Part shown: positions 399-28,478 of the stretch, in pieces | Layout of the letters: every line of letters begins with the position of its first letter | Position numbering within the stretch: the first letter of the stretch is position 1 | Origin: Deltaproteobacteria bacterium | GTDB taxonomy: Bacteria > Bdellovibrionota > JACOXK01 > 2-02-FULL-40-11 | Assembly (NCBI GenBank): GCA_023248265.1 | Contig: JAHFEZ010000005.1 | Coordinates: 1 to 38,920, forward strand | DNA: 38,920 nt | Direction of reading: 5' to 3' | Made by a program: the position numbers and the translations under genes | Notes under the pieces: model-generated | The model's database searches: none | What the model saw: only the letters and a program-made list of their open reading frames with translations | Told to the model about the DNA's origin: nothing

Positions 399-1276
399 GT
401 AAAATTTTTGAGTTTTTCAACGTAAGAAAGCCCTCCAGTATCATACACATTTCCATGATGGGCCCCCGAAATCGCATAAAATTCTTTGGGGACAGGGGCG
501 GCCTCAAAAAGATTTTGACCCAACCGGAAGGGAACCGTTTCATCTTCTGTACCATGAATAATAAGTTTGGGCATAGAAATAGATTTTATTTTTTCTAAAG
601 ATGCAAATTTACTTTTGACAAAAAGCCCCACGGGCAAATAAGGATAAAAAATCTTTGCCATATCCAATGCTGAAGTAAAAGTACTTTCCAAAATTAAGGC
701 TGATGCGAGCCGCTTGGAAGCCAAATCAACGGCGATCGCACCCCCTAAAGATTGTCCAAAGATAACAATATTTTTTTCTGAAATATGTTTTGTTTGCGTT
801 AAGTAACCGTAGGCCGCCTGAGCATCTTGATAAAGGCCTTCTTCGGAGGGGCGACCCTTGCTCTTTCCAAAGCCCCGATAATCTATAATAAAAACATTGA
901 GGTGCACTTTTTGGACAAATATCGAAATAAGCTCTAAATTATTGCTCACGTTTCCACTGTTGCCGTGAAAAAAAAGAAGTGTTTTTTGAGGATGCCTAGC
1001 TCCCCCAACTCCAACGACCGGAAAAAACCATCCATTTAATTTTATGTGGTCTTTTGTTTCAAAAAACACATTTTCAAACTTAAGATGATAGTGATCGGGC
1101 ATTTGCAAAATTTCTGCCTTGGGATGAAAAATAATATTTCCTTCATCAAGGCTTACTTTAAATGCATAGCCAAAATAACCCCCAAAACTCAAAAAGATGA
1201 GAAAAAGCAAAAGAATAGCAATTCTTTTTCTTTGCATAGCACCATCAACATACTCCTTTAAAGTTTTAGACCTCAA
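386..1276 (-). CDS. Membrane-anchored alpha/beta hydrolase (Bem46/ABHD13-like)
   Basis: N-terminal hydrophobic helix, FFHGNSGN, DYRGFGKS, nucleophile elbow GQSLG, HGTED acid and GAHH His. The true start may be ATG at 1237. Confidence 0.9.
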   Translation of the reverse strand: MRSKTLKEYVDGAMQRKRIAILLLFLIFLSFGGYFGYAFKVSLDEGNIIFHPKAEILQMPDHYHLKFENVFFETKDHIKLNGWFFPVVGVGGARHPQKTLLFFHGNSGNVSNNLELISIFVQKVHLNVFIIDYRGFGKSKGRPSEEGLYQDAQAAYGYLTQTKHISEKNIVIFGQSLGGAIAVDLASKRLASALILESTFTSALDMAKIFYPYLPVGLFVKSKFASLEKIKSISMPKLIIHGTEDETVPFRLGQNLFEAAPVPKEFYAISGAHHGNVYDTGGLSYVEKLKNFTQVF

Positions 1277-1299
1277 GAAAATTTATAACCGCCCGATAA
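1273..1299 (+). promoter_or_regulatory. sigma28 (FliA)-type promoter
   Basis: TCAA(G) at 1273, then N15, then CCCGATAA at 1292-1299. This matches TAAA-N15-GCCGATAA with exact spacing and is followed by an AGGAG RBS and ATG at 1329. Confidence 0.65.
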
Positions 1300-1328
1300 G
1301 CTTATGAAAACCAAACAAGGAGATAACC

Positions 1329-3179
1329 ATGAAAAACCCACGGCCCCAATCCATGATGATTTTAGCAATGACCCTTATATTTATTTCAACCAGCCTTCAT
1401 GCAGGATGGAACACGCTTAGACAGATCCAAATTCAAGGTAACAAAACGACGGTTCCAGAAGTCACGGGAAAGCCCCTACATACTGCAAAGGAAATTCTAA
1501 AAAGATCTGGGTTGCCATTTGAGGTTATCAATGAAGGACGCACTTTAAGCTCTGAAGAAAATGAACTCGTTACAAAACAAGAACCGAAAGCCAATAACCC
1601 CGTAACACAAGACACAAAAGTTAAATTATGGCTTAGTAAAGAAGCTGGTCAAGATGTTCAAGCAAAAAAATCGATCCCCAGTACCCTAATTAAAGTTCTT
1701 GAAAGCTCGCCCCAACACATCGCACTCTCGGGTCCCGATAGAGTGCGCCATGGTACTCTTTTTCAACTACAATGGACTCCTATCCGACAGATTCAGGAAT
1801 ATGAGCTCCACATGAGCCGTGACCGCAACTTTGCATACTTTGAAACTCAAAGGGTTATTGAAGCTAGAAGGGCCTTTCTTCAAAGTGCCAGCGAGGATGA
1901 TTCACATGTATACTTTCGCGTTCGTGCTATTTTTACAGATGGTAATCCCGGCATGTGGTCAAATATTAAAGATGTAACCATTACCGCCATGGAAGCCCCT
2001 CAACTTTCAATCAATAGAACTTCGGTTAATTCGGACCAACTTTACACGATGAATTGGTCCGTAGTTCAGGGGGCCACCTATTATTATGTGCAACGCTCAC
2101 CTCAGCCTTCTTTCCCTCGAGACCAAACTTTTTCATATCAAGTTGTCCCCAACTCTGATCAGCAGCATCATGAAGTCCATCAGAGAACTATCTATTATTA
2201 CCGAGTACAAGCAAGGCAAGACCTGAATAAGGGACGATGGTCTAATGCTGTTTCTGTGGCCATCGAACCCGGACGCAGCGCTACATCAGAAACACTGGCA
2301 GCTCCACGGCTTTCCACTTCAGCAACCAGTGTGTATGGCGGGAACGCTTTTCAATTAAGCTGGAGTAATATCCCAGGCGCTGTCCAATACGATTTTCAAA
2401 GCGCGGATAACCTTGAATTTAGACAGGGAGCCCTTTCTTCTCTTCAGTCCACCCAAACAACCTCTCGCATCAATATCAGAAATTTCCAAGACAGAGGAGT
2501 AACCTATTACCATCATGTACGCGCCCGCAATGAACAGGGCCCAGGCGCCTGGTCAAATATAGTGAGTGTCTCCATAAACCCTCTGCCAGCACCCCTGCTT
2601 ACGGTCAATTCCAATCAAGCTCAATCCGATCAAACTTACACGATTTCATGGTCACAAATTGAGCAGGCACGCGAATATATTGTGGAAGAATCTACGGCTC
2701 CTACCTTCTCAAGCGCAAACGTACGGTTGTATACTGTATCCAGCACAACATTGCCAGCTCACAACACCGTTTCTCAAAACATGCTCTACTACTACCGCGT
2801 TCGCGGGGACAATAGCCAAAGTGGTGGACGCTTTTCAAATATTGTAACCGTGGCAGTAAGTCCCTCACGAGGTACGGCTTCTACTCTTCCTGCTCCCACT
2901 CTTTCAGTTAATCCAACTCGGGTAATATCAAATGAAGCATTTGAACTGGGGTGGAATCGCATCACAGAGGCTCGAAACTATGATGTAGAAGAAAGTAGTG
3001 ACTCTACCTTCTCAAGGCCCAGCACTTTTGAAACAGAATTGCTACGATCAAGCATGCGAATTAATCTTAGCATTTCAAGACAAAGTACCACACACTACTA
3101 TCGTGTACGCGCCCGCAATGATCATGGCTCAGGTCCTTGGTCAAATATCATTCAAGTATTTATAGAATACCGAGAGTAA
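1329..3179 (+). CDS. Secreted PASTA-domain protein with five fibronectin type III-like repeats
   Basis: Signal peptide (ILAMTLIFISTSLHA), PASTA motif VPEVTGKPLHTAKEIL...VTKQEPKANNPV...VKLWLS (about aa 40-103), and five repeats ending YYxRVRA...GxWSN. Strong RBS. Confidence 0.85.
   Translation: MKNPRPQSMMILAMTLIFISTSLHAGWNTLRQIQIQGNKTTVPEVTGKPLHTAKEILKRSGLPFEVINEGRTLSSEENELVTKQEPKANNPVTQDTKVKLWLSKEAGQDVQAKKSIPSTLIKVLESSPQHIALSGPDRVRHGTLFQLQWTPIRQIQEYELHMSRDRNFAYFETQRVIEARRAFLQSASEDDSHVYFRVRAIFTDGNPGMWSNIKDVTITAMEAPQLSINRTSVNSDQLYTMNWSVVQGATYYYVQRSPQPSFPRDQTFSYQVVPNSDQQHHEVHQRTIYYYRVQARQDLNKGRWSNAVSVAIEPGRSATSETLAAPRLSTSATSVYGGNAFQLSWSNIPGAVQYDFQSADNLEFRQGALSSLQSTQTTSRINIRNFQDRGVTYYHHVRARNEQGPGAWSNIVSVSINPLPAPLLTVNSNQAQSDQTYTISWSQIEQAREYIVEESTAPTFSSANVRLYTVSSTTLPAHNTVSQNMLYYYRVRGDNSQSGGRFSNIVTVAVSPSRGTASTLPAPTLSVNPTRVISNEAFELGWNRITEARNYDVEESSDSTFSRPSTFETELLRSSMRINLSISRQSTTHYYRVRARNDHGSGPWSNIIQVFIEYRE
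2516..3121 (+). repeat. 18-nt exact direct repeat between FN3 units 3 and 5
   Basis: TGTACGCGCCCGCAATGA at 2516-2533 and 3104-3121; consistent with an internal duplication of a two-domain unit. Confidence 0.85.
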
Positions 3180-3188
3180 GATTTCATT

Positions 3189-3205
3189 TTGGCACAAAAA
3201 TTGCT
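3189..3205 (+). promoter_or_regulatory. sigma54 (RpoN) -24/-12 promoter upstream of ssb
   Basis: TTGGCACAAAAATTGCT matches YTGGCACRNNNNTTGCW; GG at 3191-3192 and GC at 3203-3204 are exactly 12 apart. Confidence 0.65.

Positions 3206-24716: not shown

Positions 24717-28478
<3,762 letters not shown>

Follow-up and report, generated by a model that had tools for sequence, protein, structure and literature searches.

A predicted exported PASTA–fibronectin type III repeat protein with a putative sigma-28 promoter in a lineage that appears to lack flagella

Introduction

This study concerns a gene at positions 1329–3179 of a 38,920-nucleotide (nt) stretch of DNA (the window; contig JAHFEZ010000005.1 of an assembly titled 'Deltaproteobacteria bacterium'), which encodes a predicted exported protein with one PASTA domain and five fibronectin type III (FN3)-like repeats, here called the PASTA-FN3x5 protein. 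Among its closest known counterparts are two groups of PASTA proteins. In the kinases PknB, PrkC and Stk1, as in the PASTA-FN3x5 protein, a hydrophobic N-terminal helix is followed by PASTA, and the best sequence and fold matches of the window's domain (3m9g, 5e12, 5nod and 3ouv) belong to this group. However, the kinases possess a kinase domain and a cytoplasmic part, of which the PASTA-FN3x5 protein has neither, and they carry three or four PASTA domains instead of a single one followed by five FN3 repeats. The PASTA domains of PknB are reported to bind muropeptides and to localise the protein (PMC3145798). Class B penicillin-binding proteins (PBPs), such as PBP2x, Staphylococcus aureus PBP1 and the FtsI-like PBPs of the host's own phylum, share the PASTA fold. 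Their PASTA is C-terminal and accompanies transpeptidase and PBP-dimer domains, whereas that of the PASTA-FN3x5 protein is N-terminal and neither domain is present. Non-catalytic PASTA proteins also occur as stand-alone clusters in the ESM Atlas (a Bacteroidota cluster of 299 amino acids (aa) with 106 members and an Actinomycetota combination of Excalibur and PASTA), but these are known from automatic cluster names only and lack the FN3 array. Linear arrays of beta-sandwiches, as in gp130, fibronectin and Aureispira GhpA, resemble the remainder of the protein (Foldseek E 1e-18 to 1e-13), but at 10–19% identity and with a template-modelling score (TM) of 0.14–0.19 over the whole model, and the matched chains are without PASTA.

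With respect to regulation, chlamydiae, which are without flagella, use sigma-28 for late genes. In Bdellovibrio bacteriovorus, the FliA (sigma-28) regulon has the motif TTAAG-N16-CCGATA and comprises many non-flagellar genes; the motif was reported in 92 of 140 mapped attack-phase promoters, and FliA is described as having become a global regulator that covers cell-surface proteins and proteases (PMC3627812). An earlier note on this DNA had named such an attack-phase role of sigma-28 in Bdellovibrio, which agrees with that report. The corresponding motif in the genome studied here is T[TC]AAG-N15/16-CCGATAAG. Whereas Bdellovibrio is flagellated, the family to which this genome belongs appears to be without flagella.

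Results

Architecture and predicted structure of the PASTA-FN3x5 protein

The gene and its upstream signals are laid out as follows (window coordinates).

1238–3198, strand not assigned: segment missing from the sister genomes (promoter plus gene, approximate limits), from comparison of the locus with genomes G002 and G003
1273–1277, + strand: sigma-28 (FliA)-type −35-like element TCAAG (TCAA at 1273–1276), by reading
1293–1300, + strand: −10-like element CCGATAAG, by reading and by matrix; the CCCGATAA of the earlier note lies at 1292–1299
1317–1322, + strand: ribosome-binding site AAGGAG, 6 nt before the ATG, by reading
1329–3179, + strand: coding sequence of the PASTA-FN3x5 protein, 616 aa, no Cys, no catalytic domain
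1329–1403, + strand: signal sequence, aa 1–25, from hydropathy and conservation across three orthologues; putative cleavage site
1449–1640, + strand: PASTA domain, aa 41–104, from Pfam, an AlphaFold2 domain model and Foldseek
1641–1709, + strand: flexible linker, aa 105–127, predicted local distance difference test (pLDDT) 23–45; its length varies among orthologues, with insertions or deletions of 9 to 16 residues
1710–1988, + strand: FN3-like repeat 1, aa 128–220, from repeat alignment, AlphaFold2 and Foldseek
1989–2276, + strand: FN3-like repeat 2, aa 221–316, from the same three sources
2295–2579, + strand: FN3-like repeat 3, aa 323–417, from the same three sources
2583–2867, + strand: FN3-like repeat 4, aa 419–513, from the same three sources
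2886–3176, + strand: FN3-like repeat 5, aa 520–616, from repeat alignment and AlphaFold2; best Pfam fn3 stretch at aa 534–610

No terminator-like hairpin was found 3′ of the gene.

Pfam recognises PASTA (PF03793) at aa 41–104 with 45.6 bits against a cut-off of 23.2 (E 6.6e-12; 50 bits in a six-frame search of the genome) and fn3 (PF00041) in three stretches with 30.8 bits against a cut-off of 25 (E 3.4e-7). No catalytic family is among the seven Pfam families matched at E<=1, and the Pkinase, transpeptidase and PBP-dimer domains gave no Pfam match at this threshold. The NCBIfam model of the Stk1/PknB kinase (NF033483) aligns aa 8–107 to its positions 333–431, which we take, from the topology of these kinases, to be the transmembrane helix and the first PASTA domain. 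This alignment reaches 36 bits, far under the cut-off of 450; together with the missing Pkinase match, this rules out that the protein is a PknB/Stk1 kinase. A sequence search of the PDB with the whole protein returned no match at E<=0.01. The five repeats of about 95 aa share 20–37% pairwise identity and the signature W..(G)A..Y ... YYYRVRA ... G.WSN. At the N-terminus, hydropathy shows a K/R n-region and a hydrophobic core at aa 6–17; the three orthologues all have the string TSLHA with G or E after it, and differ in the hydrophobic core. We infer from this a Sec signal that is cleaved after aa 25.

In the full-length AlphaFold2 model, computed from three sequences, a beta-alpha-beta PASTA-like unit (aa 39–103) is followed by a disordered linker (aa 104–129, pLDDT 23–45) and five beta-sandwiches (pLDDT about 70–83). 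Foldseek matched this model to tandem FN3 arrays, with gp130 at E 1.6e-18 as well as fibronectin, contactins and fragments of Aureispira GhpA; at such low identity and a TM of 0.14–0.19, the matches of the predicted structure represent generic fold likeness. Modelled alone, the PASTA part reached a pLDDT of 83.7 and a predicted template-modelling score (pTM) of 0.71. All but one of the 27 best Foldseek matches listed, which extend to rank 31, are solved PASTA domains of PknB, StkP, PrkC, PBP2x, PBP1 and PonA2 (TM 0.53–0.68, with 0.59–0.68 at the top of the list); the exception is 8s7v at rank 14. PknB 5e12 was matched with E 6e-4 and TM 0.65, S. aureus PBP1 7o4c with TM 0.68 and a root-mean-square deviation of 2.1, and 2z2l with TM 0.61. 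A sequence profile of the PASTA alignment retrieved the S. aureus kinase PASTA 3m9g (E 0.0016), and in the ESM Atlas model aa 33–117 align to the PASTA domains of kinase and PBP clusters (TM 0.47–0.53). The nearest solved relatives of the domain are kinase PASTAs. The architecture proposed in the earlier note, a signal peptide, one PASTA domain and five FN3-like repeats with no catalytic domain, is thus borne out by hydropathy, Pfam, repeat alignment and AlphaFold2, and the PASTA fold that it had assigned to aa 40–103 by the match of the predicted structure to solved PASTA domains.

A putative sigma-28 promoter of high rank precedes the gene

Upstream of the gene, the earlier note had read TCAA-N15-CCCGATAA, and this string is indeed present at 1273–1299. 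In our reading, TCAAG and CCGATAAG are 15 nt apart (16 nt from TCAA to CCGATA), and the −10 element lies 30 nt ahead of the ATG at 1329. The divergently transcribed alpha/beta-hydrolase gene most likely starts with the ATG at 1237, its ribosome-binding site being the reverse complement of 1251–1256; the intergenic region therefore extends from about 1238 to 1328 and contains the whole sigma-28 motif. A sigma-70-like site was not found on the + strand of 1238–1328. Alignment of assembled contigs to the stretch around the gene gave one near-identical DNA contig, which may be its source, and small fragments; the contigs of an RNA run from the same sample gave no match, which bears on expression in neither direction.

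The motif was assessed against the genome from which the window derives (G000). The oriented intergenic DNA upstream of 998 crude gene calls (66.5 kb) contains 12 matches to T[ACT]AA-N15-17-CCGATA, a count that takes in three sites in two overlapping registers each. The window site is outside these 12, its −35 element being overlapped by a crude TTG start of the hydrolase gene. By comparison, 180 permutations of the −10 hexamer gave a mean of 0.98 matches (standard deviation 1.3), and the best other permutation gave 4. An antisense control yielded 8 matches, but a divergent intergenic region enters this control twice, once per neighbouring gene; the permutation control was relied on instead. 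With about 12 matches observed and about one expected, most of the oriented intergenic matches should be real. Genome-wide there are 43 distinct sites; the −10 element is non-coding in 16 of them, and non-coding DNA makes up about 11% of the genome.

For a matrix, 30 sites other than the window site served as the training set; G000 contributed 16 of them and G004, a complete genome of the same family, 14. The matrix consensus is TTAAGTT ... CCGATAAGA, with T[TC]AAG at −35. Under this matrix, the window site scores 19.4 bits and ranks 14th among 2,319,220 positions, and its CCGATAAG is the commonest extended −10 element among the other sites. A T2SSF gene has a site at a distance of 21 nt in both G000 and G004; with the same distance and a different spacer sequence, this site constitutes a phylogenetic footprint. 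A 428-aa FN3x4 homologue in G001, a genome of the same genus, is preceded by a sigma-28-type site (TTAAA-N-GCCGATAAG) 26 nt before its ATG, and the operonic FN3x3 paralogue type (contig C32 of G000, C23 of G002) has none. By the permutation control and the matrix, the sigma-28 promoter proposed in the earlier note is good by the genome's own standard, and sequence evidence of this kind makes it probable that the PASTA-FN3x5 gene is under sigma-28 control.

Two further sites were noted. A sigma-28-like site (TCAAGTTT, 12 nt, GCCGATCT) lies on the − strand at 365–398, within the 3′ end of the hydrolase gene. It precedes a TPR gene that starts at 361, has similar counterparts in the corresponding position of G002 and G003, and ranks 36th under the matrix. 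An identical 27-nt sigma-28-type site, together with its flanks, occurs near contig ends at C44:17155–17181 and C47:90–116, which is probably an assembly overlap or a repeat.

Sigma-28 is retained in a family without flagellin and FlhA

A fliA gene is present in G000 at C43:4553–5224 (TIGR02479, 266.9 bits against a cut-off of 189.6), so that the sigma factor presupposed by the earlier note is encoded. Its neighbours, named from their translations, are a sigma-54-type response regulator, an HD-domain protein and HflX, and no flagellar genes are among them. Across the genomes compared, fliA exceeds the cut-off in 40 of 41, including all eight of the family and all three of the sister family. 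Flagellin (PF00669) and FlhA (PF00771) are each encoded in 21 of the 41 genomes overall. Neither was found in G000, in any of the eight family genomes or in any of the three sister-family genomes, and FlhA was also found in none of the four genomes of a third family. Completeness in the family is 83–100%, except for G001 at 71%; it reaches 100% in G004 and at least 90% in six of the eight genomes. Larger genomes of the same phylum have 3–21 flagellin matches each. Hence the 'motility-phase' protein of the earlier note does not hold up: fliA is kept in 11 of 11 genomes of the two families, none of which yielded flagellin or FlhA, and a flagellar or motility role was rejected on these counts.

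The anti-sigma factor gene flgM was detected in G000 (C19:2829–2939), in seven of the eight family genomes and in two of the three sister-family genomes. Its reading frames encode 59–92 aa, compared with 106–136 aa in flagellated relatives, and align to the profile over its C-terminal two thirds only. This small-genome clade thus keeps a sigma/anti-sigma pair without a flagellum.

The genes downstream of the sites in G000 form a candidate sigma-28 regulon.

LysM-M23 peptidase lipoprotein; GAF-GGDEF cyclase; PrkA; hybrid histidine kinase; DHH protein
950-aa HEAT-repeat protein with a signal peptide
Operon of a leading T2SSF gene, DUF192 and three FHA proteins
Seven proteins that match no Pfam family, the majority carrying a signal peptide
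Loci of the set include C62:3900–4514, C35:4327–5388, C40:3080–5155 and C71:13947–14864

Judged from this sequence-derived set, sigma-28 here seems to regulate envelope and secreted proteins, as has been published for Bdellovibrio, and by analogy the set would be closer to the FliA-driven attack phase of that organism than to a flagellar regulon.

A rare domain arrangement inserted between conserved neighbours

The hydrolase gene and ssb directly adjoin each other, in divergent orientation, in G002, a genome of the same genus whose hydrolase is 69% identical, and in G003 from the same family. In G002, the region of the ssb promoter, with a TTGACA-type site, realigns with the window from about position 3199. 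This comparison indicates that approximately 1238–3198 is an insertion in G000; less parsimoniously, the segment was lost twice. The G+C content of the gene (44.8%) corresponds to the 96th percentile of G000 genes. The inserted gene, which has a conserved neighbour on either side and no partner genes, is accessory and species- or strain-specific. On this point the candidate 'new system' of the earlier note reduces to a single accessory gene.

Among 12 genomes of the class, the PASTA-bearing N-terminal part occurs only in G000. In a set of 5.8 billion clustered proteins, the full architecture is shared only by P0002 (599 aa) and P0003 (605 aa), with 62–64% identity. Their PASTA part is 55–56% identical to that of the window protein in both cases, with 33 invariant positions, and PF28308 is among the precomputed domains of P0001–P0003. 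HMMER found 9421 matches at E<=0.001 among 1.84 billion representatives. Among the matches listed (best 150 of 9421), only P0003 covers aa 11–616, while the best stretches of the others start at aa 126 or later and so comprise the FN3 part only; PF03793 was found in none of 36 longer relatives. Scans of genome and metagenome contigs with the protein revealed no orthologous locus, only two FN3 matches of 42 residues, and a word-indexed search with aa 30–125 recovered the query alone. By title, none of the literature matches listed for PASTA domain, fibronectin type III and Gram-negative describes a PASTA-FN3 architecture, and a full-text literature search for PASTA domain together with Bdellovibrio found nothing. 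The author of the earlier note had not recognised the architecture, which accords with this rarity. The protein represents a very rare fusion of two common modules, that is, a new domain arrangement and no new system.

PASTA-less relatives occur within the genus: an FN3x3 paralogue in G000 (362 aa, with signal peptide, in an operon on C32), which has an orthologue in G002, and the FN3x4 relative in G001 (428 aa, with signal peptide). Upstream of the FN3x3 paralogue, a conserved exported protein is encoded (C32:3–980; L138:62–1357 in G002), which contains a Q/G/P-rich low-complexity stretch and two repeats of about 100 aa (NGPGQ..YY.R.DG.SPL).

PASTA itself is not foreign to such lineages, contrary to what the earlier note had implied by placing it mostly in Firmicutes and Actinobacteria. 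One PASTA per genome was detected in 28 of 40 relatives, and in the two loci read (L020 and L024; G003:C78 and G019:C1) it forms the C-terminus of an FtsI-like class B PBP encoded directly upstream of murE, so that PASTA on a division PBP would be common in this Gram-negative phylum; stand-alone PASTA clusters are also found in Bacteroidota. In G000, the single PASTA found is that of the PASTA-FN3x5 protein, the assembly being 61.6% complete. A recent copy of the lineage's own FtsI PASTA was rejected as the origin of the domain on account of weak similarity (phmmer E 0.0015 to 5.9, in a comparison with nine extracted PBP PASTA segments, at least three of which are mis-extracted short frames).

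Host genome and content of the window

The window is contig C66 of G000, an assembly of an uncultured bacterium that comprises 1.16 Mb in 78 contigs, with 1% contamination and a G+C content of 40.2%. BamA, TamB and SurA are encoded in the window and point to a diderm cell, in agreement with the Gram-negative host of the earlier note. The closest genomes by GyrA (73–91% identity) are titled 'Deltaproteobacteria bacterium' or 'uncultured bacterium', and the host phylum is presumably related to Bdellovibrio. The window carries dnaA-dnaN-recF-gyrB-gyrA and is likely to include the region of the chromosomal origin of replication, gaps lying at about 30.7–31.3 kb and 32.6–33.0 kb. Between 28479 and 38459, the − strand encodes recF, dnaN and dnaA, and the + strand rnpA, yidC, mnmE and mnmG. 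The gyrB gene (24717–28439, − strand) encodes 1240 aa including an intein (Intein_splicing at aa 444–869) beside the Toprim domain.

Discussion

Based on the domain matches, the predicted structure and the upstream signals, we propose a hypothetical sequence of events in which (i) FliA-RNA polymerase would start transcription near 1306–1309; (ii) the protein would be exported by Sec and its signal cleaved after aa 25; (iii) the PASTA module would bind peptidoglycan stem-peptide or lipid II-like ligands; and (iv) the rod of five FN3 repeats, for which we estimate a length of very roughly 18–20 nm, would function as spacer, tether or adhesin, either within the cell envelope or at another cell's wall. 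We infer both the binding to stem-peptide-bearing wall material, by analogy with the PASTA domains of PknB and of PBPs (PMC3145798, PMC8493512), and the location of the protein in the cell. By the same analogy, and with about even confidence, we read the protein as an envelope tether or peptidoglycan-binding rod whose target we leave unspecified.

Several observations weigh against this reading. Not every PASTA domain binds peptidoglycan. The modelled PASTA domain contains an extra short helix (model residues 38–43, pLDDT about 68) and shares 17–26% identity with solved PASTA domains, and the full-length model reached a pLDDT of only 68 and a pTM of 0.29. On the regulatory side, the spacing of 16 at the window site is a minority class, found in 7 of the 30 training sites as opposed to 22 with a spacing of 17. 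In G004, TYAA-N15-17-CCGATAA occurs 26 times against 17 for a reversed-pattern control. The sigma-28 signal in that genome lies in the location of the sites, 14 of the 26 being intergenic, with several preceding open reading frames with a signal peptide. The enrichment of signal peptides in the candidate regulon is weak (8 of 16 by a crude rule, compared with 273 of 998 overall, p 0.044). Finally, at a completeness of 61.6%, the absence of flagellar genes from G000 itself rests on its relatives.

The same domains would also fit an adhesin directed at prey or host, as suggested in the earlier note, which an epibiotic or predatory relative of Bdellovibrio would release or display in an attack-like phase; PASTA would then hold on to peptidoglycan exposed on the other cell, with the FN3 rod spanning the distance between the two. 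The candidate regulon is attack-phase-like in that it contains the LysM-M23 peptidase, the T2SSF/FHA operon and many exported proteins without a known family, and Bdellovibrio is reported to use FliA in this way (PMC3627812). The closest GyrA genomes titled 'Deltaproteobacteria bacterium' and the 3–21 flagellin matches in larger genomes of the phylum point in the same direction, as does the accessory and variable nature of the gene, which is common for adhesins. The beta-sandwich rod is similar in fold to fragments of the Aureispira grappling-hook protein, but this match is generic for FN3/Ig arrays (14–16% identity, TM 0.16–0.19). Moreover, an outer-membrane route is not evident, as the protein has neither a lipobox nor Cys and inspection by eye revealed neither a beta-barrel nor a known C-terminal sorting signal; the peptidoglycan of Gram-negative prey is hidden under the outer membrane, and none of our results indicates predation by the clade. 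We regard such an adhesin as rather unlikely. If the N-terminal helix stayed uncleaved, the protein could instead be an inner-membrane-anchored periplasmic ruler or scaffold, with PASTA beside the membrane and the FN3 rod spanning the periplasm and crossing the wall, comparable to a PknB ectodomain without its kinase that marks sites of wall synthesis. This would agree with the alignment of aa 8–107 to positions 333–431 of the Stk1/PknB model, read as transmembrane helix and first PASTA on the assumed topology, with the single long helix that AlphaFold2 predicts over aa 6–37, with an ESM Atlas Ser/Thr kinase cluster that aligns from aa 7, and with an estimated rod length of the order of the periplasm's width. 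However, the invariant TSLHA plus G or E next to a variable core in the three orthologues is the typical pattern of a signal-peptidase site, and a hydrophobic core of about 12–15 residues is short for a membrane span, which leaves the anchored ruler as the most doubtful of the readings considered here.

A plainer explanation is an ordinary exported FN3-repeat protein, in which PASTA has no peptidoglycan role (another ligand or a structural function), the sigma-28 match is a weak or chance one with transcription from another promoter, or both. FN3 proteins form a huge family with many partners, as the 9421 matches at E<=0.001 and diverse Pfam sets illustrate, and PASTA-less paralogues exist in the genus. 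In contrast, PASTA is kept at 55–56% identity in both orthologues with 33 invariant positions, the promoter site is among the best of the genome with no sigma-70-like alternative found upstream, and intergenic matches are about twelve times as frequent as expected (about 12 versus about 1). We consider this explanation improbable, though it is the one that comes nearest to the peptidoglycan-binding rod in our estimate.

Returning to the peptidoglycan-binding rod, should the PASTA domain bind peptidoglycan, the domain would serve solely to target a structural rod in a Gram-negative bacterium, unlike PASTA in its known role, in which it senses or localises as part of a kinase or PBP. A bolder and quite unlikely scenario is that, in a reduced-genome, flagella-less branch of a Bdellovibrio-like phylum, FliA-FlgM has been turned into an autonomous developmental switch for an attack-phase-like secretome, with a shortened FlgM that can no longer be exported through a flagellum, and that the PASTA-FN3x5 protein is a newly formed 'wall hook' that recognises the exposed peptidoglycan of a partner or prey and keeps it at a fixed distance.

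In summary, the gene alone is a single accessory insertion that combines two very common modules and is of modest significance, and its regulatory context is the more interesting part. This wider context may matter more: a family in which flagellin and FlhA were not detected keeps fliA and a short flgM, and carries putative sigma-28 promoters ahead of genes for exported proteins and a wall hydrolase and of a pilus-like operon. It would extend the finding of FliA as a global regulator in Bdellovibrio to organisms without a flagellar link, where, in the absence of a flagellar export gate, the release of FlgM would call for an explanation of its own.

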